NCBI GenBank assembly: GCA_035561095.1
Contig: DATMYE010000004.1
Span: 7,675-71,674, forward strand
Origin: Clostridia bacterium
GTDB lineage: Bacteria > Bacillota > Clostridia > Christensenellales > CAG-138
Length of the DNA stretch: 64,000 bases
Direction: 5' to 3'
The notes beneath the pieces were generated by a model. That model ran no database searches. It was not told the origin of the DNA and worked only from the letters and a program-made list of their open reading frames with translations. A program made the position numbers and the translations under genes. Below, in pieces: positions 1-40,801 of the stretch; position 1 is the stretch's first letter, and each line of letters starts with the position of its first letter.

Positions 1-1
1 A

Positions 2-295
2 AACGACGCCGTGCTCTATCATCATAAGCGCTTTGACGGAATGGGCTATCCGGACGAAGGCCCAACCAGAGGAAAACTTCCGTTGTCCGCAGCGATTCTC
101 GCCGTTGCGGATACCTACGATGCGATCATCAGTGACCGGCCTTACCGCGCGGGACTGACCAAAGCACGCGCCAGAGAAATCTTGGAGGAGGTAGCGGGCA
201 CGCAGCTCGACCCGAAAGTGGTCAGGGTGTTTCTCAGCATCGAGCCGCGCCTGCGTCCCGAGGACGCGGAAAAACTCCTGCTCTACACGATATGA
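2..295 (+). CDS. HD-GYP domain c-di-GMP phosphodiesterase, C-terminal fragment (5' end lies outside the window)
   Basis: Frame is open from the window edge. Translation contains HHKRFDGMGYPD, the HD-GYP signature. Stop TGA 293-295 overlaps the next ATG (ATGA). Confidence 0.85.
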   Translation, partial: NDAVLYHHKRFDGMGYPDEGPTRGKLPLSAAILAVADTYDAIISDRPYRAGLTKARAREILEEVAGTQLDPKVVRVFLSIEPRLRPEDAEKLLLYTI

Positions 296-843
296 TCCTG
301 CTTGGATGCGCGGCGCTGGGAATCCTTGTCGGCCTGATCGGCGGAGGGTCTCTGCGCGGGTTGGGACGGTATGCGCTCCGCGGCGCGCTGTTCCCTGTGG
401 CAGCGTATGTGCTCAAGGCAGGTGCGGCGGCTCTGTTCACGCCGCAGACGGGAGCGCTCGCGGTTTGCCTCCTGCAATACAGCCTGCTGTTTCTCTTTCT
501 GCTCTTCAATCATCGGCGGCCGGTCTGGCCGCTGTTTGCATTTGCGGGCACGCTGCTGAACTTCCTCGTCATCGCACTCAACGGCGGATGCATGCCGGTT
601 GCTGCGTCTCTGCTCAGCCAGGGGGACCGGCTCGCGCAGCTTGCGGAAGGACGCGTCTACGCCTACTGCCTCGCGGATGCGTCAACCAGGCTGCCGCTGC
701 TTGGAGATGTGATTCGCCTCGGTCCGGCGCAAGCGCCGCTTGGGTTTGCGAGCATCGGTGACCTCGTGCTCTGCGTCGGCGTTGGAATCCTGTTCTGGCA
801 GATGACGCGGGCGGAGAAGAAGCCTGTAGAAAATCAATTATAA
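292..843 (+). CDS. Small polytopic membrane protein, DUF5317-like
   Basis: 183-aa ORF whose ATG overlaps the upstream stop (translational coupling). It has several hydrophobic helices and an NGGCMPV motif. The DUF5317 assignment is from memory of similar proteins next to HD-GYP genes in Clostridia and is unverified. Confidence 0.6.
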   Translation: MILLGCAALGILVGLIGGGSLRGLGRYALRGALFPVAAYVLKAGAAALFTPQTGALAVCLLQYSLLFLFLLFNHRRPVWPLFAFAGTLLNFLVIALNGGCMPVAASLLSQGDRLAQLAEGRVYAYCLADASTRLPLLGDVIRLGPAQAPLGFASIGDLVLCVGVGILFWQMTRAEKKPVENQL

Positions 844-910
844 TAGAAGAAATCGCATTCAAATTTCGTTCATAATTTGGCTATAAAGAGCAAATCGGGA
901 AATCCGAGCA

Positions 911-924
911 TACCATATATGGTA
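911..924. promoter_or_regulatory. Perfect 14-bp palindrome TACCATATATGGTA (candidate operator)
   Basis: Read directly. It has the form TACCA-N4-TGGTA and sits in the 500-bp intergenic region upstream of the GGDEF gene. A second copy of the half-sites is at 1047-1060. Confidence 0.35.
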
Positions 925-1046
925 GATGCGATTTGTGAGTCCGTAACGCGGCGCGACAGGCGGGGTAGAACAGACGCGAAATTGACGAAAAACGACGTGT
1001 GCTGCGCGGATTCTCTCGGAAAAACGAAATTTTAACAATACAATGC

Positions 1047-1060
1047 TACCATGTGTGGTA
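1047..1060. promoter_or_regulatory. Second TACCA-N4-TGGTA inverted repeat (TACCATGTGTGGTA)
   Basis: Same half-sites as 911-924, located 136 bp downstream of it. Confidence 0.35.
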
Positions 1061-1089
1061 ATAGTGCATTTAAGGGGTATTTGAGCTGC

Positions 1090-1120
1090 CTGCAGCCCGA
1101 CTGCAGCCCTGACTGCAGCC
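1090..1120. repeat. Three direct repeats of CTGCAGCC at 11-12 bp spacing
   Basis: CTGCAGCC occurs at 1090, 1101 and 1113, roughly one helical turn apart, about 115 bp upstream of the candidate promoter. Confidence 0.4.
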
Positions 1121-1233
1121 ACTAAGACTATCATCTTTGCTTCCGTTGTCATTTGATCCGAGGAAATACGCCCTGACATACAATTGATTTCAGCTCGATC
1201 AATCGTAAAATTATTAAATTTAGTACGTTTAGC

Positions 1234-1261
1234 TTGAAATTACGTGGTGATTGTGTAAAAT
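1234..1261 (+). promoter_or_regulatory. Candidate sigma-A promoter for the GGDEF gene
   Basis: TTGAAA (1234-1239), 16-nt spacer, TAAAAT (1256-1261), about 85 nt upstream of the GTG start. Confidence 0.4.
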
Positions 1262-1344
1262 GGATTGGGTATGTTTGCCAAAGCCCAAGGAAAAGGGCTG
1301 CTGTTCCCGGACGCAGGCGGAAAGACCGCTACAGGTGAGCGATT

Positions 1345-2466
1345 GTGTCAACCAACGAGGCAAAGCTGTCTGTCACGACAAGAAAAAAGGCACGTTCCGC
1401 GTTTGAAGCGACAAAATTAGGCGCTGCGCAGAAGAACATCCACGTGTTTGCGGGTGTTGCGAGCGTCTGTAATTTTCTGTTTATGATCTGTGATTTGCTC
1501 TTCATCCAGGGTCAGACGCAGCGATTGATCGCTGCCGTTCTTCGATATTGCTTCTCGATTCTTTTACTCTTTATGGTTCGCAAGCTGCAGCGCATCAAGA
1601 CCTATTCCGCGTTTTCCGCCACGGTGACCGTGCTGGAAGCCACGGGTATTTTGCTGTTCTTCTTTATATTGTGGCTCTACGATTCGCCGGATTTCATGAT
1701 CCAGTCGATGGGCGCGATCCTCGCAATCCTCGTGGTCTTTACGGTGCCCAACCGCAACGGGAACATGATGGCTCTTTCGCTCGTCACAACGGTTGCGTTC
1801 TTTGGCTTTTGCTACCTGTTTATGAAGGATATCGAGACAAACGATTTTGTCGCGGCAATCGCCTATACCGTGTTTACGGTCGTCATCTGCGCGGTTCGCG
1901 CCATCGGCTCCGACCGGAATGCCTATCAGGAGTTTGAGACGAAATCGCGTCTGGAACAGACCAGCACGCGCGATTATCTGACCAATGCCGCGACGCGCGA
2001 GCGCCTGGAGGAAGAGGCGCGCCGCTGGATGAGCTTCTGCCGCAGGCAGGGCTTGCCGCTCTGTCTCGTGTTTGTAGACGTTGACGATCTCAAGCGCATC
2101 AACGACAGATTCGGACACGTGGTCGGTGATATCGCGCTCAAAGAGGTTGCGGCGCTGATGCGCAGGCAGCTGCGCAATTCGGACACCATCGCCCGCTGGG
2201 GTGGCGATGAGTTCGTTCTGCTGCTGCCGAACGTGACGCTGCAAAACGCCGTGCTGCTGCTGGACCGCGTGAAGACCGCCGTCAACGGCCTTTTGCTGGA
2301 GGGCGAGGTGACGGTATCCTGCAGCTTCGGTGTGGTACAGATGGGGCCGGAGAGCACCTATGCCGAGCTGCTTTCGCAGGCGGACGCACTGATGTATCGC
2401 GCAAAGCAGGAGGGAAAGGGCAGAATCCGCTGCCCGCAGGATCAAGCGGACGAGATGCGCGTGTAA
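1345..2466 (+). CDS. Membrane-bound diguanylate cyclase (N-terminal about 6 TM helices plus GGDEF domain)
   Basis: The C-terminal domain carries RWGGDEFVLLL with an RxxD I-site (RNSD) five residues upstream, and the FGHVVGD motif. The N-terminal half is hydrophobic. The start is GTG. Confidence 0.9.
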   Translation: MSTNEAKLSVTTRKKARSAFEATKLGAAQKNIHVFAGVASVCNFLFMICDLLFIQGQTQRLIAAVLRYCFSILLLFMVRKLQRIKTYSAFSATVTVLEATGILLFFFILWLYDSPDFMIQSMGAILAILVVFTVPNRNGNMMALSLVTTVAFFGFCYLFMKDIETNDFVAAIAYTVFTVVICAVRAIGSDRNAYQEFETKSRLEQTSTRDYLTNAATRERLEEEARRWMSFCRRQGLPLCLVFVDVDDLKRINDRFGHVVGDIALKEVAALMRRQLRNSDTIARWGGDEFVLLLPNVTLQNAVLLLDRVKTAVNGLLLEGEVTVSCSFGVVQMGPESTYAELLSQADALMYRAKQEGKGRIRCPQDQADEMRV

Positions 2467-2638
2467 AATCTTCTGAACGTAGAAATCTGTGACTTCAATT
2501 GTTACGCGAGATAAATTAATACTACAAATGGGTTAAATTACGCCGCTGGCTACAATACCTTGTAACAAAAATGAACAAGATTGAATATTCACTCACTATG
2601 CGCATGATATAACAAGTCGGTTTACTGGCCGAATATCG

Positions 2639-2679
2639 CCTGCAACGAAGTGTAAAACACTGTTGCAGGTGTTTTTGTT
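2639..2679 (+). terminator. Rho-independent terminator downstream of the GGDEF gene
   Basis: Stem CCTGCAAC / GTTGCAGG with a 15-nt loop, followed by TGTTTTTGTT. Confidence 0.6.
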
Positions 2680-2712
2680 ACATAAATTCGAGAAAAATTC
2701 ACGAATTTCTCT

Positions 2713-2741
2713 TTACACGGGCTTATTTGAAGCATTATACT
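2713..2741 (+). promoter_or_regulatory. Candidate promoter for the giant adhesin gene (about 300-nt leader)
   Basis: TTACAC, 17-nt spacer, TATACT, in the AT-rich intergenic region. Confidence 0.3.
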
Positions 2742-3044
2742 GAAAAAAATGACATCAGCCACGCAACGAATATGTAATGTGTGAGATCTCATTTTTATAA
2801 GTAAAGAGCCTGAAGTTTCACAAGCGCAAACGATTGTAAACCTCTTTTTTAAACAAGAGGAGCCTCTCGTTTGATTTTCGCATTGATTTGTTCGTTCGCA
2901 CACATGAAAAAATAACACAGCCCAACACCGGAGAACCAAAGAAGCGTAAGAAGAAAAATCACAATGTAACAATTAACAAAACGATCCTTTCCACGGAACA
3001 GTATCACCGTCACGAAAATGTAACGAAACACCGGAGGATCCCAT

Positions 3045-6000
3045 ATGTTGTCTGCTACAATGAGCCGGATCAAGAGATTTAGCAAGCGGGCATTCCGCAT
3101 GGTGCTCTGCGCCATGATGGTCTTCCAGACGCTCCTTGTACCGACCTCGGCGCTCGCAGCCGAAACCGCGTTTTATTTCCGCGGGTACGGCTCGGAGAAC
3201 ATCAACTCCACAACGCTCAACTACGCCACAAGCGGCGCGAGCGTCAGCGGGCGGGATGTGACCATCTCCGCGACGGCAAGCGAGGGCGAGGCGATCGGCC
3301 TCGTCAACCTGAATGAGACAGGACATGATATTTCGCAGTCCGTTGATCTCGGCGGGCTGGAGATTGATTTCTCCGTCGTCAGCAACGTGACTGAAGAGGG
3401 CGTCGGTGGGGCAGACAACGATGTACCGACCGCCACGATTTACTTTTGCAGCAGCGCCGACCTCGGCAGCGTGATTTCCTCCGTCACGCTCAACAAGGCG
3501 GACAATGCAGTCGCGGGCAGCGAAACGCTCTCCTCCGGAGCGAAGATTCCCGACGGCACACGCTCGATCTTCCTATCTTTAAAAGGCACAAATAAAACAG
3601 GCAACAACACCGTCACCTTCACGAACACCAGCCTCGTGATCCGCGACGCGGGCGCGCCGACCATCAGCGCGGACTACACCAAGACCTGGACGAATCAGGA
3701 TGTCACCGTGACCATCAACGCCGCGGACAGCGACGCTGGCCTTGAGGGCATCTACGTCAACGACACGCGCGTGACGGGAACCTCTCCTTATACATTCGTC
3801 GTCTCCAGCAACAACACAAGCTTCACGGCCTACGCCATGGACCTCGCCGGAAAGAAATCCGACGTCGCCTCCGCAACCGTGGATCACATCGACAAGACCA
3901 CGCCGAGCGCTCCTTCCTCCGTGCCGCTGAGCAGCAGCAACTGGACGAATGCCGACGTTTATGTTTTGATGCCGGCGCTCTCCGCGAGCACGGGTTCGCC
4001 GGAGCGCTATGTTTACCAGATTGGTTCGTCCGCATGGGCGACCCTGCCGGACGGCTTTGCGATCACCGCGGAAGGCAACACTGTCGTCCGCGTCGCAGTT
4101 GAGGATGAAGCGGGCAACCGCTCCGCCTATGCGCAGGCGACGGCGAAGATCGACAAGAGCGCACCCACCATCAGCAACGCGACCATCACCTCCGGCAGCT
4201 CGTCTGCCAAGGTGGATGTGACCGCCACCGACGTCGGGCTCAGCGGCATCGCGAAATTTGCATACGCCGAGGGTACGCAGACCGCGGATTACTTTACCAC
4301 GGGTGGTACCCTCATTTCCAACGGAACATTCACCGTTGGCGTCGGCGGAACGTACACGCTGTTCGCCAGCGACATCGCTGGCAACACCGCGCTCAAGACG
4401 ATCTCCATCACGACGGCGCCGACCTTTGACGCGGTGAGCAACGTCACGATGAACGAGGACGAAACCAAGAATGTCCCGCTCAGCATTTCGGACGCGGAGA
4501 GCACGCGCAGCGAACTGACCGTTCGCGTCAGCACCACGAATGATGCGCTCCTCGAGCACGTTGTGCTCAACCAGAGTGACAGCGCGATCAGCCTTGACAT
4601 CACACCCGCCGCGAACCAGTCCGGCGGACCCGTGACCGTCACGGTTGAGGTCGAAGACCCGAGCGGACAGAAGGTCTCCCGCCAGTTCACCGTCACGGTG
4701 CAAGCGGTCAACGACCTGCCCGTCGCCCAGAACGACAGCGGAATCACCGTCAACGAAGACAACAAGGTCGAGATCGACGTGCTCGCCAACGACAGCGACC
4801 TCGCCGACGGCGACACGCTGAGCATCAAGAGCGTCGGCGATCCCGCGCACGGCACGACGCTGATCGTGCTCGGCAAGGTTCGCTATACGCCCGCCGAGAA
4901 CTACGCCGGCACCGACAGCTTTACCTATGAAGTATCCGACGGTAAGGGCGGCACCGCACAGGCGACCGTCTCTATCACCGTCAATCAGGTGAACGACGCA
5001 CCGACGGCGCTTGCCGACAAGGCGTCCACCGCGGAAGACACCGCGGTTTCGATCGACGCGCTTGGCAACGACACCGACGTGGACTTCGCCACCGACGCAG
5101 GGGAGAGCATCTCGCTCGTCTCCAGCGCGAACGGTTCGCACGGTACGACCGAGATCGTCGGTGGACTTATCGTCTACACGCCTGATGCGGACTTCAACGG
5201 CACGGACACCTTTACCTATATTATTGAAGACAAAGCGGGGCTGACCTCCGAAGCGACCGTCACAGTCACTGTTGCGCCGGAAGCGGATGCGCCGCGCTTT
5301 GCGAAGCTGAACACCGAATATACGATCGACGAAGACGCGAAGAACGCGGAGATCGCGTTTGAGATCTACGACGTCGAAACCCCGGCGGACAGCCTCATGC
5401 TGCAGGCGGCGACGCTCGACAGCGAGATGCTCGACCAGACCGGCATCGCGATTCAGGGTCTCGGCGACAGCAACGTTGCCGTCAAGCTCCTGCTCTCGCC
5501 CGTTGCAAACCAGCATGGCGACGTCAACATCAAGCTCACCCTCGGCGACGGCTTCGAGACGGTCGAGCAGACGATCGTCGTGCACATCACGAATGTCAAC
5601 GACGCGCCGCGTTCGGGCGCCGACACGCGGACGTTTACCGAGGATTCCGCCTACCTCGATATCAGTATCGCGGGCTTGCTCGCAAACGACAGCGACATCG
5701 ACGGCGACACGGTCTTCTTTGACGGACTCGCGGGCGCTCCCGGCTCCGGCACGATCGAGCTGCTGAACGCGACCACTCTGCGCTATACGCCGGTTGCGGA
5801 TTTCTCCGGCAAGACGAGCTTTACCTATTACATCAGCGACGGCACGGCGAGAACCCTCGCAACCTGCACGCTGGAGGCGACGGGCGTCAACGACGCGCCG
5901 ACCATCGCCATCACCCCGACTGAGATCGCCGGAACGGAAGACACCGTTGTAGTGATTCCGTTTACAATTGCGGATCAGGAGAGCGCGGCTGCCGATCTGG

Positions 6001-9000
6001 AGGTTATCGTCGCAAGCAGCGACGACAATATCGTCACCACCGACGGCGTGACCGTCGTCAACAACGGCGACGGCACCGGCGAAGTGCAGATTCTGCCTTC
6101 TGCGGACGCAAACGGTTCCCCGTCGATCACGCTGACGGTCAGCGACGGCGAAGCACAGGCGAGCGACAGCGTGAAGCTGATCATCGCGCCGACGCAGGAC
6201 GCGCCGGTTGCGGAAGACGATCTCGTCTATGTGCACTACACCACAAGCCGCAGCTTCAGCCTGCTCACCAACGACCACGACGTGGACGGTGACACGCTTA
6301 CGGTGAAGTCTTACGCCGCGGAACTGCCCGGCACGCTGACGTTTGACATCGACACGCAGATGTTCACCTATGTGCCGTCGATCGGCGAGAACGGCATCAG
6401 CACGTTCACCTATACCATCACCGACGGCAAGGACACCGATACAGCGACCGTTGAACTCGATGTCGTCAGCGAGACGCACAGCCCCGTGATCACGGCGATT
6501 GACAGCCGCTACGTCTCGGAGGACGGCACCCTCAGCGGCATCGCCTTCAGCGTGTCCGATGAGGACATCGGCGATACGGCGACCATCACCGTCGATTCCG
6601 GCAACACGACCATCCTGCCGGAGGACGCCGACCATATCACGGTTACCAATAACGGCAGCGGGAACTATTCACTCGCGCTCAGTCCGGCTGCCGATCAGTC
6701 CGGCACCGTCAGCGTGACGGTCACCGTCACCGACGGCTCGTCGCTTTCCGACAGCACGACGTTCTACCTGCACGTCATCGGCCAGAACGACGCACCGATT
6801 GCAGTCAACGACGCGATCACCATGAACGAGGACGGCTCGCTGACGCTCAACCTGCTCGGCAACGACTCCGATCCCGACGGCGACACGATTTGGCTTTCCA
6901 GCCTGTCCTGGCCGAGCCACGGCTATATGGAGCGCACCGGCAACACCTATACCTACTATCCCTACGGCAACTGGAACGGCACGGAGACGCTGACCTACCG
7001 TGTTTCGGACGGCCGCGCAACCGCACAGGCAACCGCCGTCATCACGGTCAACCCCGTGAACGACGATCCGACCGCCTGGGACGATTGGTTCGAGATCGGG
7101 AATACAACCGGAACAGAGAGCGCGAACATCAATGTGCTCGGCAACGATTATGACGTCGACACCGGAGACGTGATCCGCACCTATGAGATCGTCACGGCGC
7201 CGAGCTACGGCACCGCGGTCATTGAAACCAACGGCACGATCACCTATACGCGCAACCAGATTTCGCCGCTCGGCAACGGCGCGGATTCGTTTGTCTACCG
7301 CATCATCGACCGCGAAACCGCGACCGGCGACTACCGCAGCGCGACCGCGACGGTGCACATCGGTGTGGAGTTCATCAGCACGCTCAATACCTATGGCACA
7401 AGCGTCTACTGCTATGAGGACGATGCGGCCTTCAACATCGACATTCCCGTGAGTAACCCGACGCCCGTTACCTACGGGCTGACGATCAACACAACGACGA
7501 CGCTCGGAACATTTGAAGTTCTGGATAACAACACCGTGCGCTTTACGCCCGCGCCGAACCAGAACGGCTATGCGTCCATCTCCTACACGGTCGAACAGAT
7601 CGGCGGCGGGGAAAAGGACACGGGTACCATCTGGCTCCGGGTCTATCCGGTCAACGACCTGCCGGAGATCACCTCCGCGCCGAGCTCCGTGACGTTTGAT
7701 GAAGACGCAAGCACGGGCACGACGTTTGACGTCGCCTTCCGGGACGCGGACATCGCAAACGAATACCTCTACTTCTACGTCTACACCCAGAGTGGGACGT
7801 CCACATCCCCGATTCCGTTCCTCGTTTCCTACAGCGTCACCCGCACGGAAGCGGGCGCAAAGGTCACCGTGCACGCCGACCAGAACGTCAACGGCACGGG
7901 CAAGATCACCATCGGCGTCAGCGACGGCATGACGTATACCGAAAAGACGATCGATCTGACGATTCGCCCCGTGGACGACGCGCCGGTGGTCAATCCGGTC
8001 GCAAAGACCATCAACGAGGATTCTTCCGTGACGTTTGCCTCGCCCGGCTCGGACAGCGAGGCGGACGGCGACAGCGTAATCTACGCCATCGATCCCGCGA
8101 ACATGCCGCAGCACGGAACGGCGACCCTGCACGACAATCACACGATCACTTATGTACCGAACGCGAACTACAACGGCACGGATACGTTCAAGGTGCTCGT
8201 TACCGACGTCACCGAAGCCGCGCTTTCGACCGCAGGACAGGTGAGCATCACCGTCCGCCCGATCAACGACGCGCCGGAAATCCGCGATCTTTCCTATTAT
8301 CAGACCACGCTGGAAGACACGGCAAAGGATGTCACCCTGACCGTCAGCGACGTTGACAACGACATGACGGGCAGCACACACTACACCCTGACGTCGGAAG
8401 ACCAAACGCTGGTCAAGAACGCGAATATCACCATCAGCCACGTGTCCGGAGAACAAATGGTCATCCACGTCGTGCCGGAAGCCAATGCCTACGGCACCGT
8501 GAAGATCAACATCTCGGCCAGCGACGGCAGCCTGAACGCGAAAGCCGCGTTCTCGCTCAAGATCGTGCCGGTCAACGATATCCCCGCTGCCGTGGATGAC
8601 ACCGCGAGCGTGAACGAAGCCGTCTCCACCGGCGCGGAATCCACTCCGCCGAAGACCACGGTCACCCTCAATCTGCTCACCAACGATTCCGACGTCGAGG
8701 ACGGCAAGCCCAGCGTGGTCGCCGTCTCCAACGTGGTCAACGCGACCGTCGCCAACATCGGCGGCGGCAAGGTGCTGGTCACTGCGGACGGAGACTTCAG
8801 CGGAACCGTCACGTTTACGTATACCGTCATGGATCGCGCGGGCGCAACCGACACCGCGGACGTCACCTTGACCGTCAACGCGGTCAACGACCCGCCGCGC
8901 GCCAAGGCCGACAGCATCACGATTCTGGAGGACGCGACGCCGCAGATCAGCGTGCTCGCGAACGACAGCGATCCCGAGGGAGACACGCTCTCCATCTCGA

Positions 9001-12000
9001 GCGTTGGAACCCCCGCGCACGGCACCGCGCAGATCAACGGAACCTCGATCGACTATGTGCCCGTGAAGGACTACTTCGGCACGGATTCGTTCACCTATAC
9101 CGTTTCTGACGGAAACGGCGGCACGGCGACTGCGACGGTCACCATCACCATCAAGCCTGTCAACGACGCGCCGACGGTCAACAAGCACAGCTCGACCGCG
9201 GGCGACTGGCAGATGCTCGAGGACACCACGCAATCCTTCAACTTCGTGGTTGCAGACGCCGAGAGCGCGGTCAACAACCTCATCATCAAGATCACCTCGC
9301 TGGATGAAACACTAATCAAGACCACGCAGATCCAGCTGACCACCAACGCCGCGGGCTATAAGGTGCTCACGGTGACGCCGGTGCTCAATGCATACGGCGT
9401 GGTAGATCTCAAGATCACGGTCAGCGACGGGCTACTGAGCACCGAAGCGATCTATCCGCTCATGATTGTGAGCGTCAACGACGCGCCGGTTGTTACCGCG
9501 CCCGTCCAGACGACCAAGGAAGACACGCAGCTGCACGCGAGCGCCTACGCTACCGATGCGGAAGGCGACAGCGTGACCTTCGCCAAGTACACCGATCCCG
9601 CGCACGGCACCGTGACGGTCTCTGCGGACGGATCGTATGACTACATGCCCGCCAAGGACTACAACGGAGAAGACTCGTTCATCATCCTCGCGGACGACGG
9701 GAAGGCGGAAAACCACGCGGGCTACGCGACGGTCTATATCACCGTCAAGCCCGACAACGACCCGCCCACGGCGCAGGACGACAGCATCACCATCGATGAA
9801 GACACGCCGACTACGGTTACCGTCATGGCAAACGATACGGACCAAGACGTTCCCTACGGCGACAAGATCTCGCTGCTTTCCGTGACGGCACCCGCGCACG
9901 GCACGGCTGTCATCAGCGGCGACGCGATCCTTTATACACCCGCTGAGAACTACAACGGCACCGATTCGTTCACCTATACCATCACTGACCGCGACGGCAA
10001 GACCGACACGGCGACGGTTTCTGTCACCATCCGCCCGGTCAACGACGCGCCGAAGGGCGGCGACGACACCGCAAGCGTGCTTGAAGACCATTCCGTGGAT
10101 ATCAGCGTGACGGAAAATGACGACGTGGATGAGACGACGAACCCGACGCTCGAAGACGTTACCATTCTCTCAGTCGATACGCCCGCGCACGGCACGGCGA
10201 GCATCAGCACCGACAAGAAAACCATCACCTATACGCCGGATGCAAACTGGTTCACCCCCGAAGGCGCTCCGGAAGTCTTTTACTATACCGCCAAGGATTC
10301 CTCCGACCAGACGGGACGCTTTGCAGTAACCGTTACGGTTACCTCCGTCAACGATCTGCCTGTGATCACACCGAGTGATCTGCCCAACGTCACCACGGCG
10401 GAAGACACGCAGACCGATGCGATTACGTTCACAGTGAGCGACATCGAAACCGCGGCAGGCTCGCTGACGGTTACCGCGACGCATCTCAACGGCGTGCTGC
10501 TGCCCGCAATTTCGGTCACACCCAACGCGGACGGCACCTGTAGCTTCACCGTGCTGCCGAACGCAAACAAGGTAGGTTCCGCTCTGATTACCGTCAAGGT
10601 CACCGATGCCGACGGCGGACAGGTCAGCGACACGTTCACCCTCACGGTGACGCCGGTTAACGATGTACCGCGCCCCGGCAACGACGCGTTCACGGTTGCG
10701 GAAACCGGAACGTATACGGCGGATGTGCTTGCCAACGACGACGTAGACACGCTCTCGAACAACGGCGGGGACACGCTGACGCTGCTCTCGATCGCAACGC
10801 CGCAGTACGGCACCGCGACCATCGTCAACAACAAGCTCTATTACGTACCCAAGGCCGACCGTGACACCACGGCGAACTACTATGATATCTTCACCTATAC
10901 GATGAAGGATGCATCGGGCAACGAATGTACCCCGACGGTCACCGTAACGGTCACGCCGGTCAACGACGCGCCGACGATCTCCGCGATTGCGGACGTGACA
11001 GGCATTCTCGAAGATGCGCCAGACGGCACAGGGGACATCAGCTTCAATGTTGCCGATGAAGAGGACGACGACAATACGCTCGCGGTTTCGACGGCGAGCA
11101 GCGATACCACGCTCTTCCCGGTGAGCAATATCTCCATCACGAACCCGACGGACGACCCGACAGGCTCGCTCCGCACGGTGAAAGTCATCCCCGCCGCGAA
11201 CCAGTACGGCACGGCGACCATTACGCTCACCGTGCGCGACGCGCAGGGAAAGACCGCGACGACATCGTTTGACGTCACGGTCGAGTCCGTCAACGACGTG
11301 CCGTATAACGGAGATCGTTCGTTCACGGTCGTCGAGGATGTGGAAAAGCAGCTCGACGTACTGACCGGCATCGACCCCGACTATGCTACGGTTCCGGCCG
11401 ACATCACCATCACAGCCATTGCGACCCAGCCGAGCCACGGCACGGTGCGCATCGCGAGCGACGGAAAATCCCTCTACTACAAGACCGCGCAGGACAGCAA
11501 TGAACCGGATTCGTTCCAGTATACGATCCACGACGCATACGGCAACGCGGACTATACCTTCACCGTGACCATCACGGTGACCCCGGTCAACGACGCGCCG
11601 GTGATCACGTATCTCGGCAACGCAACGTATACGATCTATGAAGGTACGCAGCAGAACGACATTCCGTTCAACGTCACCGACGTGGACAACGTCACCGACG
11701 CGAGCGGCACGGCGCCTGTGGAGGTTACGCTTTCCGCCAAGAGCAGCAACTCGATCCTGCTGGTCAACGGCATCCACATCGACACGCTGGCGGGCAACAA
11801 CCGCGATATCGACCTCAAGCCGTATCTCAAATGGAACGGCAATACGACCGTGACCATCACCGCGACCGACCCCGGCGGGTTGAAGGCGACGGCGAGCTTC
11901 CAGCTCGTGGTCAACAACGTCAACGATACACCGGTTGCGGTCAACGACTCGTTCACGATTCCGGAGGATCAGACCTCTTCCGTCAACGTGCTAGGAAACG

Positions 12001-18000: not shown

Positions 18001-20750
18001 CCGACGAAAACGGGGAACTCACCTTCACGCCGGATGCAAACTACAACGGAAGCTTCGAGCTGACCTATCAGATGAAGGACACTGCCGGACTGATCAGCTC
18101 CGCGAAGCTCACCGTGACCATCCATCCAGTCAACGACGCGCCGGTTGCGGACGATCAGAACGTCTCCGCCGTCGAGGACACGCAAAAGACGATCGATGTC
18201 TCCGGCATCATCGGCGATGTGGACGTTGAAACCAATGACGACGTGATCACCGTCAGCGTTACCGACACGGGTAAGCCCGCACACGGAACCGTCAGCGTCT
18301 CCGGCACGGTGCTCACCTATACGCCGGAAGCGGACTACAACGGCACCGACATGATCACCTACACGGTGACCGACGCGAAGGGTCTGAATGACATCGGCAG
18401 GCTGAACATCACGGTAAGCGCAATCAACGATGCGCCTGTCGCGGTGGACGACGAAAAGACCGTGCTTGAAGACAGCACCAACAGCATCTTCGCGCTCGTC
18501 AACGACTACGACGTCGACACCGACGATATGCTCAACGCCGAACCTGCGGAAGCGCCGTACATCCTCTCCGTGACAGACGGCGCGCACGGCACGGCGACCA
18601 CGGACGGAACGAAGATCACCTACACGCCGGATGCGGACTACAACGGCACCGATGCGATCACCTATGTGCTGAGCGACGGGCTGAAGACCGCAGATGCGAC
18701 GATCGATCTTTCAATCACACAGGTCAACGACAGCATCGTGGCCAGGGACGATCTTGCTGCGACCAACGACGAAGAGACGGTCACGGTGGACGCGCTCGGC
18801 AACGACACGGATGTGGACACCGACAAGGCGCTCAACGAAGACGAGCTGCACCTTGTCAGCAGCTTCCGCATCACCGAGGTCGGCACACCGGAACACGGCA
18901 CGGCGCAGATCGTCTCCGGCAAGATCGAGTACACGCCGGAAGACCGCTTTGCGGGCGACGATACCTTCACCTATACCGCTTCGGACGGACACGGCACGAC
19001 TTCGGTTGCAAACGTGACGGTTACGGTCATCAGCGTGAACGATCCGCCGGTGATCAAGGTTGTTTCGAGTCCGAAGGACGGAGACCGCGCAGGCACCGGA
19101 TCGAAGATCACGGTCGAATGGACCGGATTTGACATCGACGGTGACGCGCTGACCTATACCCTCGAGTACTACGACGGCAAGACCTGGCAGCTCATCGACA
19201 AGAACCTGACCGGAACGAAGTATGAGTTCGCGATTCCGGATACGCTCGGCAGCACCGACGGGCTCAAGTTCCGCGTGAACGTGCGCGACAGCGAGTTCAC
19301 GAGCGAATACGGCTACTCCGGCGCGATGAAGGTCGACAAGGATGCGCCGAAGGGTACGGTCGTGACCATGCAGACGGCGGATGGCAAGACCTATACCGCA
19401 GGCACATGGACGAATCAGACCGTGACGGTGGTCGCAGCCAGCGCAGTTGACGCCTCGAAGGTCACCTATTACTACGACATGGACGGCGGTGCCAGCGCGG
19501 CAGCCGCGGGCATGGACGTGACGCAGGGCGTGCACACCGTGAACATCCGCGCGGTGGATGAATACGGCAACAGCACCGTCGTGGGCGCATACCTCGCGCG
19601 CGTAGACAAGCAGCAGCCCGCCGTGCCGGAGATCCGCGAGAGCGTGTCCGGCGGCGCCGTAGTGCTGACGCTCACGCTGAGCGCAGACCCCGGCGGCAGC
19701 GGAAACAACACCCTCATCCTGCCGGACGGCACAACGGCCAAGGCTTCGGGCAGCCCGACCTTCTCCGTGGCCAAGAACGGCACGGTGAACTTCACCCTGA
19801 CCGACATCGCGGGCAACCGCAGGGCGTTTACACACACTGTCGGCACGGTCGACGTCAGCAAACCCCTGATCACGCTCGCTTCCGGCGCGTACCGCACCGG
19901 AACCATCACGCAGGACACGATCTCGGCGATGCTGACCTTCTCGGACGCGGAGAGCGACATCGTCAACCGCGGCTATCAGCTCTCGCAGAGTGCAACGCCC
20001 AGCGGCTCCTACCGCACCTATGACGGTGCGCTGAAGCTCACGGATGCCGGAACCTACTACATCCACGCCTACGCTAAGAATGCGTTCGGGCTCACGACCT
20101 ACGAGACATTCGGCCCGTTCATCATCGAAGCAGTCGAAGCGCCCGCAGCCTCGCCCACGCCCGCGCCGGAGACCGGCGATGTCGTGGTCACCAAGGAGGA
20201 CGTTGAGGAGATTCCGGGCGACACGGTCAAGATCCGTCTGCCCGGCAAGGAGTGGAGCGAAACGCTCACGCTTGAGGACGTTGGCCCCGGCACGTACCTG
20301 ATCGAGGCGATGGACGCGGACGGCAATGTCCGCACGGTTGAAGTGCGCGTGACCATGCGCGATATCTTCGCGCGGTCGCTCCGCTCGGCAGGCGACAACG
20401 TCACGCTGGCGGCGATCCTCGCGATTGTAGCCCTCGCGGCAATCGCGTTTGCGCTGCTGTTCTACAGCTACAACATCACCGTGGTCGTGGTCGGTAAGCG
20501 CGGCGTATCCGAGCAGAAGCTGCGTACATTGCGGCGCATGAAGTTCCGCAAGAAGGAGCTTCTCGTCAAGCTCGACAACAAGTATTTGATTGGCGGCGAA
20601 TTCGCGGACTTCAAGGTCGCAAAGGCACTGAGCAAGAAGATGCGCGGCAACACGATCATTGTGACCTTCCGCGGCGAGGAAGTGCTGCGCGAGACACTTC
20701 CGGAGGACTTTGACGAGTCGTTCCGCCGCAAGATCATGATCGAGCGCTAA
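3045..20750 (+). CDS. Giant (5,901 aa) Sec-exported surface protein with cadherin-like/'tandem-95'-type repeats, a C-terminal TM anchor and a cytoplasmic tail
   Basis: - Uninterrupted 17,706-nt ORF with GGAGG 7 nt upstream of the ATG.
- Signal peptide MLSATMSRIKRFSKRAFRMVLCAMMVFQTLLVPTSALA|AE.
- About 48 modules of 95-105 aa separated by [VI]-N-D-x-P linkers, with DxDxDGD-type acidic loops and NYNGTDSFTYT / HGT motifs.
- TM helix VTLAAILAIVALAAIAFALLFYSY (20400-20471), then a 92-aa basic tail. Confidence 0.93.
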   Translation: MLSATMSRIKRFSKRAFRMVLCAMMVFQTLLVPTSALAAETAFYFRGYGSENINSTTLNYATSGASVSGRDVTISATASEGEAIGLVNLNETGHDISQSVDLGGLEIDFSVVSNVTEEGVGGADNDVPTATIYFCSSADLGSVISSVTLNKADNAVAGSETLSSGAKIPDGTRSIFLSLKGTNKTGNNTVTFTNTSLVIRDAGAPTISADYTKTWTNQDVTVTINAADSDAGLEGIYVNDTRVTGTSPYTFVVSSNNTSFTAYAMDLAGKKSDVASATVDHIDKTTPSAPSSVPLSSSNWTNADVYVLMPALSASTGSPERYVYQIGSSAWATLPDGFAITAEGNTVVRVAVEDEAGNRSAYAQATAKIDKSAPTISNATITSGSSSAKVDVTATDVGLSGIAKFAYAEGTQTADYFTTGGTLISNGTFTVGVGGTYTLFASDIAGNTALKTISITTAPTFDAVSNVTMNEDETKNVPLSISDAESTRSELTVRVSTTNDALLEHVVLNQSDSAISLDITPAANQSGGPVTVTVEVEDPSGQKVSRQFTVTVQAVNDLPVAQNDSGITVNEDNKVEIDVLANDSDLADGDTLSIKSVGDPAHGTTLIVLGKVRYTPAENYAGTDSFTYEVSDGKGGTAQATVSITVNQVNDAPTALADKASTAEDTAVSIDALGNDTDVDFATDAGESISLVSSANGSHGTTEIVGGLIVYTPDADFNGTDTFTYIIEDKAGLTSEATVTVTVAPEADAPRFAKLNTEYTIDEDAKNAEIAFEIYDVETPADSLMLQAATLDSEMLDQTGIAIQGLGDSNVAVKLLLSPVANQHGDVNIKLTLGDGFETVEQTIVVHITNVNDAPRSGADTRTFTEDSAYLDISIAGLLANDSDIDGDTVFFDGLAGAPGSGTIELLNATTLRYTPVADFSGKTSFTYYISDGTARTLATCTLEATGVNDAPTIAITPTEIAGTEDTVVVIPFTIADQESAAADLEVIVASSDDNIVTTDGVTVVNNGDGTGEVQILPSADANGSPSITLTVSDGEAQASDSVKLIIAPTQDAPVAEDDLVYVHYTTSRSFSLLTNDHDVDGDTLTVKSYAAELPGTLTFDIDTQMFTYVPSIGENGISTFTYTITDGKDTDTATVELDVVSETHSPVITAIDSRYVSEDGTLSGIAFSVSDEDIGDTATITVDSGNTTILPEDADHITVTNNGSGNYSLALSPAADQSGTVSVTVTVTDGSSLSDSTTFYLHVIGQNDAPIAVNDAITMNEDGSLTLNLLGNDSDPDGDTIWLSSLSWPSHGYMERTGNTYTYYPYGNWNGTETLTYRVSDGRATAQATAVITVNPVNDDPTAWDDWFEIGNTTGTESANINVLGNDYDVDTGDVIRTYEIVTAPSYGTAVIETNGTITYTRNQISPLGNGADSFVYRIIDRETATGDYRSATATVHIGVEFISTLNTYGTSVYCYEDDAAFNIDIPVSNPTPVTYGLTINTTTTLGTFEVLDNNTVRFTPAPNQNGYASISYTVEQIGGGEKDTGTIWLRVYPVNDLPEITSAPSSVTFDEDASTGTTFDVAFRDADIANEYLYFYVYTQSGTSTSPIPFLVSYSVTRTEAGAKVTVHADQNVNGTGKITIGVSDGMTYTEKTIDLTIRPVDDAPVVNPVAKTINEDSSVTFASPGSDSEADGDSVIYAIDPANMPQHGTATLHDNHTITYVPNANYNGTDTFKVLVTDVTEAALSTAGQVSITVRPINDAPEIRDLSYYQTTLEDTAKDVTLTVSDVDNDMTGSTHYTLTSEDQTLVKNANITISHVSGEQMVIHVVPEANAYGTVKINISASDGSLNAKAAFSLKIVPVNDIPAAVDDTASVNEAVSTGAESTPPKTTVTLNLLTNDSDVEDGKPSVVAVSNVVNATVANIGGGKVLVTADGDFSGTVTFTYTVMDRAGATDTADVTLTVNAVNDPPRAKADSITILEDATPQISVLANDSDPEGDTLSISSVGTPAHGTAQINGTSIDYVPVKDYFGTDSFTYTVSDGNGGTATATVTITIKPVNDAPTVNKHSSTAGDWQMLEDTTQSFNFVVADAESAVNNLIIKITSLDETLIKTTQIQLTTNAAGYKVLTVTPVLNAYGVVDLKITVSDGLLSTEAIYPLMIVSVNDAPVVTAPVQTTKEDTQLHASAYATDAEGDSVTFAKYTDPAHGTVTVSADGSYDYMPAKDYNGEDSFIILADDGKAENHAGYATVYITVKPDNDPPTAQDDSITIDEDTPTTVTVMANDTDQDVPYGDKISLLSVTAPAHGTAVISGDAILYTPAENYNGTDSFTYTITDRDGKTDTATVSVTIRPVNDAPKGGDDTASVLEDHSVDISVTENDDVDETTNPTLEDVTILSVDTPAHGTASISTDKKTITYTPDANWFTPEGAPEVFYYTAKDSSDQTGRFAVTVTVTSVNDLPVITPSDLPNVTTAEDTQTDAITFTVSDIETAAGSLTVTATHLNGVLLPAISVTPNADGTCSFTVLPNANKVGSALITVKVTDADGGQVSDTFTLTVTPVNDVPRPGNDAFTVAETGTYTADVLANDDVDTLSNNGGDTLTLLSIATPQYGTATIVNNKLYYVPKADRDTTANYYDIFTYTMKDASGNECTPTVTVTVTPVNDAPTISAIADVTGILEDAPDGTGDISFNVADEEDDDNTLAVSTASSDTTLFPVSNISITNPTDDPTGSLRTVKVIPAANQYGTATITLTVRDAQGKTATTSFDVTVESVNDVPYNGDRSFTVVEDVEKQLDVLTGIDPDYATVPADITITAIATQPSHGTVRIASDGKSLYYKTAQDSNEPDSFQYTIHDAYGNADYTFTVTITVTPVNDAPVITYLGNATYTIYEGTQQNDIPFNVTDVDNVTDASGTAPVEVTLSAKSSNSILLVNGIHIDTLAGNNRDIDLKPYLKWNGNTTVTITATDPGGLKATASFQLVVNNVNDTPVAVNDSFTIPEDQTSSVNVLGNDTDDDLTTNPATEYIKVKTVTDNDPNAVITKAADGLSVTVVPSANYNGPLSFTYTVEDALGAESNAATVGITVTQVNDAPVTAADTATTNEDTAVDISVLSNDSDIDMQSGLNANPSAESISAVITGTGLTAPGHGSIATDGTKITYTPAANYNGTDTFDYYCSDGDVKTKGTVTVTVKQVNDNPVANTDTVSTNEDTATVEVDVLANDTDVDTGAALNLDVKHLTTDFTITDATVTNASHGSVQIVNNKLKFTPALNWFGVEVVNYTMSDGHGGTASSTLTVTVISVNDLPVFDTAPENMSLTEDGVNGVTTVVVSDIETAAASLAVTVTASSKTSLIATTDVTVTAGAGGTRTITVNPKNDQNGSATITLQVKDGNNAVQTITFVVTVAAVNDTPAAGDKTLNIPEDATLQTVTKTSLTTDADIATNSDVLTLTITTAASHGTASINASGNVTYIPNANFNGVDTFVYTATDLTGAFDTGTFTVNISQVNDAPTTTADTATTNEDTAVDIMVLSNDSDIDMQSGLNANPAAESISAVITGAGLTAPSHGTIATDGTKITYTPAANYNGTDVFDYYCSDGDTQVKGTVTVTIYQVNDNPVAVADTSSTNEDTAKSGIDVLANDTDVDTGSTLNLNELHSKSDFTITAATLTNSAHGSVEIVGNKLNFTPALNWFGTEVVNYTVSDGHGGTANGTLTMTVNPINDLPVYDTEPEDMNLSEDSADGVTTVVVSDIETAAASLAVTVISSTNTSLIATSDVTVTAGTGGTRTITVNPKLNQNGTATITLKVDDLTGGTRTVTFDVTVAAVNDAPVADDHQLNINEDAALQTVLKTILTSDVDIVTNADALTLTISSPASHGTASIDASGNVTYIPTANFNGTDSFTYTATDKEEATDTGTFTINIAQVNDAPVTTADTATTNEDTAVDIGVLTNDSDVDMDAALNAHPESESISVVLTGTGLTAPSHGSIATDGTKITYTPAANYNGTDTFDYYCFDGDVKTKGTVTVTIKQVDDSPAYGPDFATIDEDTATGFIDVMANDTDVDLDPALNQDNLLLRSNFYISAAWVSDAASGTVTRENNQVKFTPAANWFGTAKVYYTLQDGYGASCVGLLTITVNPINDLPVYDTEPEDMNLSEDGADGVTTVVVSDIETAAASLAVTVISSTNTSLIATSDVTVTAGTGGTRTITVNPKLNQNGTATITLQVDDLTSGKRTVTFDVTVASVNDAPVAIDKTLDIDEDAALQTVTKASLTTDVDIATDADALTLTISSPASHGTAGIDANGNVTYIPTSNFNGTDSFEYTATDKFGGVDTGIFTIHVAPLNDAPVTANDSKTTNEDTAVDINVLSNDSDVDMDAALNANPESESISVVLTGTGLTAPAHGTIATDGTKITYTPAANYNGTDTFDYYCSDGDVKTKGTVTVTIKQVNDIPVANPEEATISEDSATDFIDVLANDTDVDLDSALNQDDMLLRSKFYISAASVNISAYGTVELVDNKIKFTPTANWNGVALVYYTLQDGYGMSCSTALRVTVTPVNDLPYSTLPPATQNLTEDGEDGASLFYVNDVETAASLVSVTLKSCSNTTLIPLSAITLEHKGGEGRLITVNPADNRFGDALITLVLEDADGGKSEVTMEVHVSSVNDAPVAQDKTLDLNEDIGKISVAKFALASDVDTITNGDVVTLTISKSALHGTAAIDANGDVTYVPNKDFNGVDSFEYTATDKAGASDSGTFTINLPQVNDAPVVQNDAAMTDEDTAVDIYVLDNDSDVDMDASLNANPEEASITVVITGAGLTAPSHGTIATDGTKITYTPAANYNGTDTFDYYCFDEHVQVKATVTVTIKQVNDNPVANADSTSTDEDTAVSYNVLANDSDVDTVSALNENALHLKSSFTVDSCYFYGGTNGTLAIDGANIVYTPASDFYGTQIIKYVLKDGNGGSSTGTLTVLVGTKNDAPVANADEMSADEDHVASVNVLTNDTDVDTGDTKTFLGFIEPTSGLPGTFTTDENGELTFTPDANYNGSFELTYQMKDTAGLISSAKLTVTIHPVNDAPVADDQNVSAVEDTQKTIDVSGIIGDVDVETNDDVITVSVTDTGKPAHGTVSVSGTVLTYTPEADYNGTDMITYTVTDAKGLNDIGRLNITVSAINDAPVAVDDEKTVLEDSTNSIFALVNDYDVDTDDMLNAEPAEAPYILSVTDGAHGTATTDGTKITYTPDADYNGTDAITYVLSDGLKTADATIDLSITQVNDSIVARDDLAATNDEETVTVDALGNDTDVDTDKALNEDELHLVSSFRITEVGTPEHGTAQIVSGKIEYTPEDRFAGDDTFTYTASDGHGTTSVANVTVTVISVNDPPVIKVVSSPKDGDRAGTGSKITVEWTGFDIDGDALTYTLEYYDGKTWQLIDKNLTGTKYEFAIPDTLGSTDGLKFRVNVRDSEFTSEYGYSGAMKVDKDAPKGTVVTMQTADGKTYTAGTWTNQTVTVVAASAVDASKVTYYYDMDGGASAAAAGMDVTQGVHTVNIRAVDEYGNSTVVGAYLARVDKQQPAVPEIRESVSGGAVVLTLTLSADPGGSGNNTLILPDGTTAKASGSPTFSVAKNGTVNFTLTDIAGNRRAFTHTVGTVDVSKPLITLASGAYRTGTITQDTISAMLTFSDAESDIVNRGYQLSQSATPSGSYRTYDGALKLTDAGTYYIHAYAKNAFGLTTYETFGPFIIEAVEAPAASPTPAPETGDVVVTKEDVEEIPGDTVKIRLPGKEWSETLTLEDVGPGTYLIEAMDADGNVRTVEVRVTMRDIFARSLRSAGDNVTLAAILAIVALAAIAFALLFYSYNITVVVVGKRGVSEQKLRTLRRMKFRKKELLVKLDNKYLIGGEFADFKVAKALSKKMRGNTIIVTFRGEEVLRETLPEDFDESFRRKIMIER
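12222..17201 (+). repeat. Four in-phase tandem copies of a 1,245-bp (415-codon, 4-module) super-repeat inside the giant gene; a partial fifth copy continues to about 17840
   Basis: The homologous string (CAGGTCAAC, CCGCTGAAC or CAGGTGAAC, then GACGC) occurs at 12222, 13467, 14712, 15957 and 17202. The spacing is a constant 1,245 bp. The translated units align without indels. Confidence 0.9.
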
Positions 20751-20768: not shown

Positions 20769-20800
20769 CAAAAACGGGGAGCAGAGGCTCCCCGTTTTTT
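20769..20800. terminator. Bidirectional rho-independent terminator between convergent genes
   Basis: AAAAACGGGGAG-cagagg-CTCCCCGTTTTTTT: an 8-bp GC-rich stem flanked by an A-run and a T-run. Confidence 0.85.
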
Positions 20801-20811
20801 TGTATTCCGAA

Positions 20812-21795: not shown

Positions 21796-22183
21796 GCGAT
21801 GCCCTCCCGTCGAAAAAGAAAGGATGTTCCGATCACGGAAGACTAGATGTTTCGTTGATTTGATTATAGTTGAGTTAGCGCGCTGCTTCAACTGCGGGTG
21901 GCGAAGAAATCGCATCACTTGACACTGTGTTGATCTTCGTTTGAATATTTCTTGAGAAATGCCTGCTACAATCCGAATCGTAGCATGAAAAAGTGCCAAA
22001 ATAGGCGCATTTTCCGCAAACGATGGCAAAGAAGCGCAGCTTCATAGAAAAGACGTAAAGTTGTCGGCAAATCGTTGGTTTTCCGTAAAACCCGCGTAAC
22101 AATATGCCGGTATGATAGTAGCATAAGAATTTGAACAGACACGCGGCAAGCGCCGCAGGACCATGAAAGCGAGGCAATTTCTG

Positions 22184-27693: not shown

Positions 27694-27837
27694 CATCATG
27701 GTTCAATTCTCCGCATTTGCGGAAAGATGCACCTTCCGCCACGGGGCGAACAACGTTGATTGCTAATTTCAGCATGACACAGGATTTGGATGGATAGGCT
27801 GCGGCGTCAGTTTCCGCAAGCCGAAAGGAGTCTAAAC

Positions 27838-30180: not shown

Positions 30181-30265
30181 GGCGCGGACAGCACTACAGA
30201 ATCATGCGCGGGAAGGACGATTGCCCTCCCGCGCATCTGCATATCCTATGAAAGGGAACGACGGC

Positions 30266-33543: not shown

Positions 33544-33703
33544 GGTGTTACTCCTCATCTATTACAATGTTCATTACTCTGTAAAACGCAACCATGATAT
33601 CACAACAAACAGCCCGGATTCAATCAAAACGGCAAAACTCACAACTTGTTTACATATATTCTGCGTTTTTTTTCGCCTGTTGCGGCGCTTTTTTTACATC
33701 CGC

Positions 33704-38276: not shown

Positions 38277-38321
38277 GAAAACGCGTTTGGCCACGCCGGA
38301 CGCAACAAGAGGAGAGACGCT

Positions 38322-40726: not shown

Positions 40727-40801
40727 CAGCTCTTTTCCGGCCAATCATCCGCGACGGCGCAGGAAACACCCAGTTTGCAAGTAACCGGATCGGAGCACCC
40801 G

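Follow-up and report, generated by a model that had tools for sequence, protein, structure and literature searches.

The 64,000-nucleotide (nt) stretch of DNA analysed here (hereafter the window) comes from a Clostridia bacterium (Christensenellales; CAG-138) and covers positions 7,675-71,674 of contig DATMYE010000004.1 in assembly GCA_035561095.1. At its upstream end, genes for the predicted turnover of c-di-GMP, the cyclic dimer of guanosine monophosphate, precede the gene of a giant surface adhesin. A first-pass annotation had listed four genes on the + strand, an HD-GYP phosphodiesterase, a small membrane protein (DUF5317), a GGDEF diguanylate cyclase and the adhesin, and all four were found where it had placed them, using the open reading frame (ORF) listing and Pfam scan on which the gene identities in the window are based. 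Comparison with relatives indicates that the c-di-GMP cassette (window 2-2466) is, as judged from sequence, a vertically inherited core unit of Christensenellales-type Clostridia, and that the adhesin is an accessory gene and at most one output of the cassette. The earlier proposal, a self-contained module that serves the adhesin alone, is not supported; against it speak the synteny of the region, the occurrence of the cassette without the adhesin, and separate promoters together with a hairpin. The best explanation overall, which we hold tentatively and put a little short of an even chance, is a core cassette with the adhesin as one c-di-GMP output reached through a trans-acting effector. A looser functional link, with all mechanisms taken together, is plausible, its chances being about evenly balanced, and unproven.

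The cassette locus was compared across 14 related Christensenellales-type lineages, gathered from a metagenome scan with the adhesin N-terminus and from the contexts of DUF5317 homologues, and the resulting tally was confirmed by tblastn. The window itself was extended by a Logan contig, L001, that is identical to it and reaches 2.9 kb further upstream. A gene for a 212-amino-acid (aa) protein, the HD-GYP gene and the DUF5317 gene were found together in every related locus reaching far enough upstream (the window via L001, L002, L087-L090 and L092-L098), while contig ends left only HD-GYP and DUF5317 visible in L082, L083 and L091. Cyclase and adhesin were both present in nine lineages (window/L001, L002, L082, L083, L086, L090, L094, L095 and L097), which span 39-68% cyclase identity and 50-81% identity over the adhesin N-terminus; the adjacency in relatives, a check named in the first-pass annotation itself, is kept in all nine. 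Specifically, L002, a complete chromosome of a Christensenellaceae metagenome-assembled genome, held the only full-length cyclase orthologue (39% identity) in the species-level genome collection and showed the order 212-aa gene, HD-GYP, DUF5317, cyclase and giant ORF, the N-terminus of the latter being 58% identical to that of the window adhesin. Two lineages (L087/L088 and L096) had an intact cyclase and no adhesin, one (L092/L093, two independent assemblies) an intact cyclase followed by a 228-272-aa C-terminal remnant of the adhesin, and one (L089, a 2.85-Mb contig) neither cyclase nor adhesin. In L098, a more distant relative, a 212-aa-type gene, HD-GYP and DUF5317 occurred in other flanks with a non-orthologous cytoplasmic GGDEF protein and no adhesin. 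These gains and losses of the adhesin show that the cassette is independent of it. Distant cyclase homologues (L003-L005, 30-34% identity) lay in other contexts with no cassette and were uninformative.

Closer examination of the loci lacking a full adhesin gene showed ~70 bp between the cyclase stop and a DUF6144-like gene in L087, and ~60 bp between DUF5317 and the DUF6144-like gene in L089. In L092 (12245-13062) and L093 (12245-13063), the last 228-272 aa of the adhesin, comprising the membrane-proximal part, the transmembrane (TM) helix and the tail, were located ~105 bp past the cyclase stop, with no adhesin promoter, leader or repeats; the remnant in L092 is further split, which suggests decay. 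The L098 group (5630-10332, with a 209-aa gene at the position of the 212-aa gene) is flanked by an Opp-type ABC transporter, a PMT_2 glycosyltransferase and a prophage-like region. Its DUF5317 is 42% identical to that of the window and the next GGDEF protein is cytoplasmic with an SGDEF motif, and the presence of this non-orthologous GGDEF beside HD-GYP implies that a phosphodiesterase-cyclase pairing was kept with another cyclase.

The best independent hint of a link, suggestive in strength, is that members of one adhesin family are found next to two different predicted cyclases. L084 carries an adhesin orthologue (3929-12708, + strand; N-terminus 67% identical) in a non-syntenic context, with a Rieske/VanA oxygenase gene and a divergent gene for a 532-aa HisKA_7TM-PAS-GGDEF protein (1532-3130, - strand), non-orthologous to the window cyclase, as its neighbours. 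L085 resembles L084 on a contig too short for its context to be judged.

Several points weigh against the adhesin being an output of the cassette. The ~30-kb region is syntenic throughout, from an upstream flank of shikimate dehydrogenase, a sugar ABC transporter and a Fer4 protein to a shared downstream flank of the DUF6144-like gene, epimerase, GNAT, amidohydrolase, SIR2, MreB and NlpC/P60, which the window genes match. Such whole-region synteny predicts adjacency even without a functional link, and conserved adjacency is therefore low-weight evidence. HD-GYP and DUF5317 are kept in all four (4/4) lineages without a full adhesin at this locus; three of these four (L087/L088, L096 and L092/L093) also have a cyclase with intact GGDEF and RxSD, L089 keeps HD-GYP/DUF5317 alone, and the presence/absence tally (nine with both, three with cyclase only, one with neither) is statistically uninformative. 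In L084 the adhesin is split over three reading frames, which could mean a pseudogene or a fault of assembly. The window was found to hold no c-di-GMP receptor of a known class. The closest solved relative of the HD-GYP protein, V-cGAP3, is specific for 3'3'-cyclic GMP-AMP (3'3'-cGAMP), with c-di-GMP enzymes ranking after it, and sequence cannot decide between c-di-GMP and 3'3'-cGAMP as substrate of this predicted phosphodiesterase.

The arrangement might then reflect no functional link at all, with a housekeeping signalling cassette, an adhesin in a slot of variable content that is bounded by the cyclase and the DUF6144-like gene, and adjacency as inherited synteny. In favour of this are the occurrence of the same backbone with and without the adhesin (L087, L089, L092/L093), the cyclase staying intact where the adhesin is absent, an adhesin that owns its promoter and terminator, and effector genes not being found among the scanned ORFs. 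However, the arrangement has been retained across divergence down to 39-42% cyclase identity (L002, L097), and a second, non-orthologous cyclase beside an adhesin orthologue, as in L084, would be uncommon by chance if cyclases make up ~1% of genes (an assumed figure). We consider the absence of any link a real possibility, if somewhat on the unlikely side.

If, as we prefer, the adhesin is one output of a core cassette, the two membrane enzymes would set the c-di-GMP level in response to envelope or membrane signals and the adhesin would be one output of the resulting pool. Control would most likely be exerted at transcription initiation or by leader attenuation, by way of conserved motifs flanking the promoter and in the leader, together with the terminator-like hairpin, and the effector would act in trans, encoded outside the locus. 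The features of the locus are collected in Table 1.

Table 1. Features of the c-di-GMP cassette and adhesin locus, in window coordinates.
Feature	Position	Strand	Characteristics
HD-GYP phosphodiesterase, C-terminal 97 aa	2..295	+	Pfam HD_5 E 6e-17; motif HHKRFDGMGYPD
DUF5317 membrane protein	292..843	+	PF17248 E 4e-21, 76 bits vs cut-off 25
Palindrome copy 1, TACCATATATGGTA (TACC-N6-GGTA)	911..924	.	ACC and TGGTA invariant in 8 aligned loci
Palindrome copy 2, TACCATGTGTGGTA	1047..1060	.	Recognisable in 6/8 aligned loci
Cyclase promoter-like site	1234..1261	+	TTGAAA-16-TAAAAT, extended -10 TGTGTAAAAT; consensus scan
6-TM GGDEF diguanylate cyclase	1345..2466	+	Pfam GGDEF E 3.6e-36; TIGR00254 E 3.7e-41
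Terminator-like hairpin and T-run after cyclase	2637..2680	+	-21.6 kcal/mol, z -3.9, then GUUUUUGUU
Adhesin promoter	2694..2741	+	Near-palindrome AAAAATTCACGAATTTC adjoining TTTACA-18-TATACT (2712-2741); consensus scan
Leader block ACGCAACGAATATGTAATG	2761..2779	+	About +15 to +35 from inferred start
Two-tier terminator-like hairpin in leader	2827..2879	+	CAAACGA...TCGTTTG with inner CCTCTT/AAGAGG, then ATTTTC; minimum free energy -16.2 kcal/mol
Two ATGTAAC motifs	2964-2970, 3018-3024	+	Just upstream of GGAGG ribosome-binding site
Adhesin, 5,901 aa	3045..20750	+	Big_9/Cadherin_4/Cadherin_5 (Pfam)
95-aa basic tail domain of adhesin	20463..20747	+	aa 5807-5901; motifs LRTLRR.KFRKKE and KKMRG
Strong intrinsic terminator after adhesin	20770..20802	.	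-24.4 kcal/mol, z -6.3; A-run and T-run flanks

The HD-GYP gene is truncated by the window start and is supplied in full by L001 (1602-2924), where it encodes a 440-aa protein matching HD_5 (PF13487) with E 1.4e-33 and 116.5 bits against a cut-off of 27.2; the window fragment scored 62.3 bits against the same cut-off. The HD dyad LLHDTGK and the HHxxxDGxGYP motif (YHHKRFDGMGYPD) were both found in the L001 gene, the second motif corresponding to window 11-60, and about seven hydrophobic segments in the N-terminus, a multi-TM part lying outside the window, point to a membrane-anchored protein. Its solved relatives were, best first, V-cGAP3 (5z7c), PmGH (4mcw) and PA4781 (4r8z), with phmmer E values of 1e-21 to 4e-28. 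The sharing of four bases (ATGA) by the HD-GYP TGA and the DUF5317 ATG, described in the first-pass annotation, could be read directly in the window, and this overlap was present in 9/9 syntenic loci with gene tables. More generally, HD-GYP lay immediately upstream of DUF5317 in 14/14 lineages, with a gap of 33 nt in L098. As the two are always paired, the HD-GYP and DUF5317 proteins probably form a complex or co-sensor.

The 126 DUF5317 homologues, each of ~185 aa, have conserved NGGxMPV and GFASxGD motifs, and PF17248 was carried by 120/120 of those listed. An AlphaFold2 (AF2) model with a predicted local distance difference test score (pLDDT) of 87 had five TM helices, the fourth and fifth separated by a beta insert; a Foldseek search with this model gave no PDB neighbour, so that no fold could be assigned despite the confident prediction. 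DUF5317 appears to show no mark of a nucleotide receptor and to resemble no known c-di-GMP receptor. A full-text literature search found no paper dealing with DUF5317. The gene of the 212-aa protein (L001 647-1285), just upstream of the window, always precedes HD-GYP where the locus reaches far enough, and its product shares 71-92% identity (mostly 87-92%) among syntenic relatives, exceeding every other cassette gene. This protein had no match in Pfam, NCBIfam or the PDB, and among the best 120 listed of its 981 homologues all were unnamed or hypothetical.

The GGDEF domain (PF00990) of the cyclase scored 124.8 bits against a cut-off of 23.8. The gene starts with GTG, with AGGTGA-N6 ahead of it, and encodes six N-terminal hydrophobic segments; an alternative public gene call starts it later, with an ATG at 1573. 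The intact GGDEF and RNSD I-site noted at first pass were both seen in the window cyclase, where this RxxD-type I-site stands five residues ahead of GGDEF (RNSD-TIARW-GGDEF), and GGDEF and R(N/S)SD were invariant in 12/12 cyclase orthologues, three of them from adhesin-less loci. The cyclase and the HD-GYP protein are ordinary members of the GGDEF and HD-GYP families.

The DUF5317-GGDEF spacer, aligned for eight loci, contains two TACC-N6-GGTA palindromes ~135 bp apart and far upstream of the cyclase promoter. Copy 2 is partial in L095 and absent in L094, whose spacer is shorter. The palindromes are possible operators for some regulator, and we know of no regulator consensus site that fits them convincingly. 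At the cyclase promoter, GTGTAAA inside the TGTGTAAAAT block was invariant in the eight loci. The spacer of the window also holds, at 1090-1125, three GACTGCAGCC-like direct repeats (CTGCCTGCAGCCCGACTGCAGCCCTGACTGCAGCC), an insertion absent in the seven other aligned loci.

Two conserved promoters, the hairpin after the cyclase and the terminator after the adhesin together argue for three predicted transcription units, HD-GYP with DUF5317, the cyclase, and a monocistronic adhesin, rather than one operon. The -35/-10 hexamers of the adhesin promoter and the adjoining AAATTCAnGAAT block (ATTCA) were conserved across 9-11 orthologous loci, and the adhesin terminator faces the convergent DUF6144-like gene. 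From the inferred start (~2749) to the ATG the leader measures ~296 nt. In a comparison of 11 orthologous leaders, from the window, L002, L082-L086, L090, L094, L095 and L097, the GCAAC-NN-ATATGTAA block (GCAAC..ATATGTA) was near-invariant in the eight leaders having it, the non-syntenic L084/L085 among them, with one T for C in L082. An equivalent hairpin and T-run occurred at the same relative position in most of the 11 leaders, with differing inner stems, and in the leaders where the scan placed it, its end lay ~150-170 nt ahead of the ATG; L097 has CAAACA/TGTTTG as its outer stem, and the entire stem is different in L084/L085. The ATGTAAC motifs are likewise conserved in adhesin orthologues, with related copies at 2561-2568 (+) and 2675-2683 (-), upstream of the adhesin promoter. 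The 580-bp spacer between cyclase and adhesin holds 3/6 of the ATGTAAC sites and 3/4 of the TGTAACAA sites of the 64-kb window. Every ATGTAAC contains ATG-TAA, a start codon with a stop codon directly after it. We know of no cre, TnrA/GlnR, WalR or PhoP/OmpR-type consensus site that ATGTAAC fits convincingly.

A conserved RNA or DNA element of no recognised class does lie in the adhesin leader. Its pattern fits attenuation plus a sequence-specific DNA- or RNA-binding factor; a structured aptamer would fit less well because the whole-leader fold is no better than that of shuffled sequence (z -0.7). In a search of Rfam (4,227 families, both c-di-GMP classes included), window 1-3600 gave no riboswitch match with E values allowed up to 5, the entire window gave none at the gathering threshold and six orthologous loci gave none up to E 1, and the covariance models of GEMM-I (RF01051) and c-di-GMP-II (RF01786) had no match in the seven loci. 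A known riboswitch in the leader is ruled out at these permissive thresholds for the window and the six orthologous loci. The sole Rfam match, to CRISPR-DR52 (25.7 bits, E 0.097), fell within the signal-peptide coding region and was attributed to chance. RNAalifold predicted zero pairs over the leader's first 60 nt, ruling out conserved secondary structure at its 5' end, and the leader block showed no conserved pairing.

It could be argued that a new class of c-di-GMP-sensing riboswitch or attenuator resides in the leader (about 2749-2880), with the hairpin as its expression platform. In most of the 11 orthologues the hairpin and T-run do lie ~80-130 nt downstream of the conserved promoter, the outer stem keeps its sequence and the inner stem varies, a near-invariant 17-nt block separates promoter and hairpin, and adhesins of Clostridioides difficile are under such control (PMC6366702, PMC6447587). 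Against these stand the Rfam result in seven loci, the RNAalifold result, in which the candidate aptamer region lacks conserved pairing, and the fold statistics given above; the invariant block resembles a primary-sequence protein-binding site, with ATGTAAC recurring on the opposite strand upstream of the promoter, and the alignment comprises 11 sequences only. On balance, a new riboswitch class is very unlikely.

The adhesin itself consists of a Sec-type signal peptide, a unique N-terminal region of ~450 aa, tandem Ig/cadherin-like domains, a C-terminal TM helix and a tail. Only two hydrophobic segments were present (aa 19-39 and about 5781-5807), and no LPxTG, NPxTG, SPxTG or LPx[AS]G turned up when the full protein sequence was searched with regular expressions. 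The adhesin is predicted to be a type I membrane protein that is exported by Sec and held by the single C-terminal helix. The tail, with 23 K/R and 13 D/E (net charge ~+10), was 48-89% identical across eight adhesin orthologues. An exhaustive phmmer search showed that other giants, of 4,663, 4,625 and 1,687 aa, also carry the tail domain at their extreme C-terminus; the first and the last of them, the two covered by the Pfam check, are Big_9/cadherin proteins. The domain also ends smaller Flg_new (Listeria-Bacteroides repeat) proteins, the family comprising proteins P0252-P0298, and follows a TM helix in every case. Near-invariant motifs in this family are YN(V/I)x(V/I), LRTxRRxKxRxxE, (K/R)RMRG and IP(E/D)D. 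The tail had no Pfam (E up to 10), NCBIfam or PDB sequence or profile match, 11 family members had no Pfam match at E up to 1, and tail-domain genes were found neither in plasmids nor in 98 other loci searched. The AF2 model of the tail is all-beta with seven strands (pLDDT 72) and gave no Foldseek neighbour (best E 0.58, no PilZ among the matches). The tail is a member of an undescribed C-terminal domain family in Clostridia surface proteins. An assignment as a PilZ domain, prompted by RTLRR...DNKYLIGG, was ruled out by Pfam, PDB profiles and Foldseek on the AF2 model: RTLRR is present, but the second motif (D/N)xSxxG and the spacing do not fit.

Such a tail could nevertheless exert post-translational inside-out control by binding c-di-GMP or by docking the cyclase or HD-GYP/DUF5317, altering retention, clustering or proteolytic release of the adhesin; it would then be a functional analogue of LapD/LapG built into the adhesin. 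The conservation and predicted beta fold of the tail are consistent with this, as are its recurrence on giant Big_9 adhesins and Flg_new proteins with near-invariant LRTxRRxKxRxxE, K/R-RMRG and IPxD, and its predicted topology, cytoplasmic and beside two membrane-bound c-di-GMP enzymes. However, neither sequence nor predicted fold bears any likeness to PilZ or another known receptor, the AF2 model is of moderate confidence only, and a conserved basic tail is equally explicable by membrane insertion, anchoring, or secretion and assembly, so that we regard tail control as quite improbable. The more general proposal, that the adhesin is a direct c-di-GMP output via a new receptor, either the 95-aa arginine-rich tail or a leader element upstream of the hairpin, with DUF5317 as an obligate HD-GYP partner, is improbable.

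As to the trans-acting effector of the preferred explanation, 30 ORFs from the 20.8-53 kb part of the window were scanned with Pfam and proved to be housekeeping genes, with no PilZ, LapD, LapG, sortase or type I secretion system (T1SS) genes among them, and Lap-type genes were likewise not found upstream in L001, L002 and L087-L097. Together with the Rfam search, this upholds the negatives of the first-pass annotation, which had seen no LapD/LapG, PilZ or riboswitch. Christensenellaceae are heritable human-gut commensals, and a full-text literature search gave nothing linking them with c-di-GMP except passing mentions. If the link is real, it would represent a Clostridia-class coupling of c-di-GMP to a giant membrane-anchored adhesin without a known receptor, and if the new-receptor proposal were true, the first Bacillota c-di-GMP adhesin circuit without PilZ, LapD or a known riboswitch. 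If it is not, HD-GYP/DUF5317 would stand as a fixed gene pair and giant adhesin genes as being gained and lost within a rigid chromosomal backbone. DUF5317, the tail domain and the leader element are uncharacterised parts suited to binding assays.

In the downstream neighbourhood, the DUF6144-like gene (window 20812-22029, - strand) is a 405-aa ORF that probably encodes 327 aa from an ATG at 21796 with a GGGAGGG ribosome-binding site, a length that agrees with the gene calls in L087-L089; the gene is missing in L092, L096 and L099. In window 27790-31348, a YkuD L,D-transpeptidase containing SH3 domains comes after a 796-aa NlpC/P60 protein that carries four PG_binding_1 repeats, and an LCP-family gene (32422-33558, - strand) lies near these two, forming a cell-wall remodelling neighbourhood downstream of MreB. 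Further downstream, window 37296-42172 contains the conserved cluster of DUF2232, GdpP, ribosomal protein L9 and DnaB. GdpP, a cyclic di-AMP phosphodiesterase (38322-40283), stands in its usual housekeeping context, and the window therefore holds a second cyclic-dinucleotide enzyme.

The closest functional analogues of the locus are the Lap system and the riboswitch-adhesin circuits of C. difficile, whose defining features were looked for here and not found. In Pseudomonas fluorescens, LapA/LapD/LapG form a c-di-GMP inside-out adhesin switch with homologues in Bordetella, P. aeruginosa (CdrA) and Desulfovibrio (PMC3032545, PMC3032553, PMC4933386, PMC10990149). As in Lap systems, a giant repetitive Ig/cadherin-like adhesin gene lies in the window beside c-di-GMP signalling genes, and the c-di-GMP proteins are membrane-embedded. 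In contrast, LapD (HAMP, degenerate GGDEF-EAL), the LapG protease and a T1SS are not among the scanned ORFs, and the enzymes look catalytically intact rather than like degenerate receptors. The adhesin has an N-terminal Sec-type signal and a C-terminal TM helix with cytoplasmic tail instead of the T1SS and C-terminal signal of Lap adhesins, and the host belongs to the Bacillota (Clostridia class), for which the lack of an outer membrane is an assumption only. The HD-GYP protein resembles its solved relatives (4mcw, 4r8z, 5z7c) in a catalytic domain with HD and GYP motifs and differs from them in a polytopic membrane N-terminus of ~240 aa with no Pfam match and in a DUF5317 gene that always overlaps or abuts its own. 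To our knowledge, cyclases and phosphodiesterases are not clustered with adhesin genes in C. difficile. In that species, c-di-GMP riboswitches control CD2831, CD3246, Zmp1/PPEP-1 and pilA1 (PMC6366702, PMC6447587, PMC7865049, PMC3649979). Unlike the adhesins under this control, the adhesin of the window is not an LPXTG sortase substrate, and the seven orthologous leaders showed no GEMM-I or c-di-GMP-II match and no detectable conserved aptamer structure. The likeness lies in the Clostridia-class host and in a long adhesin 5' leader that includes a terminator-like hairpin, the layout of a transcriptional riboswitch.

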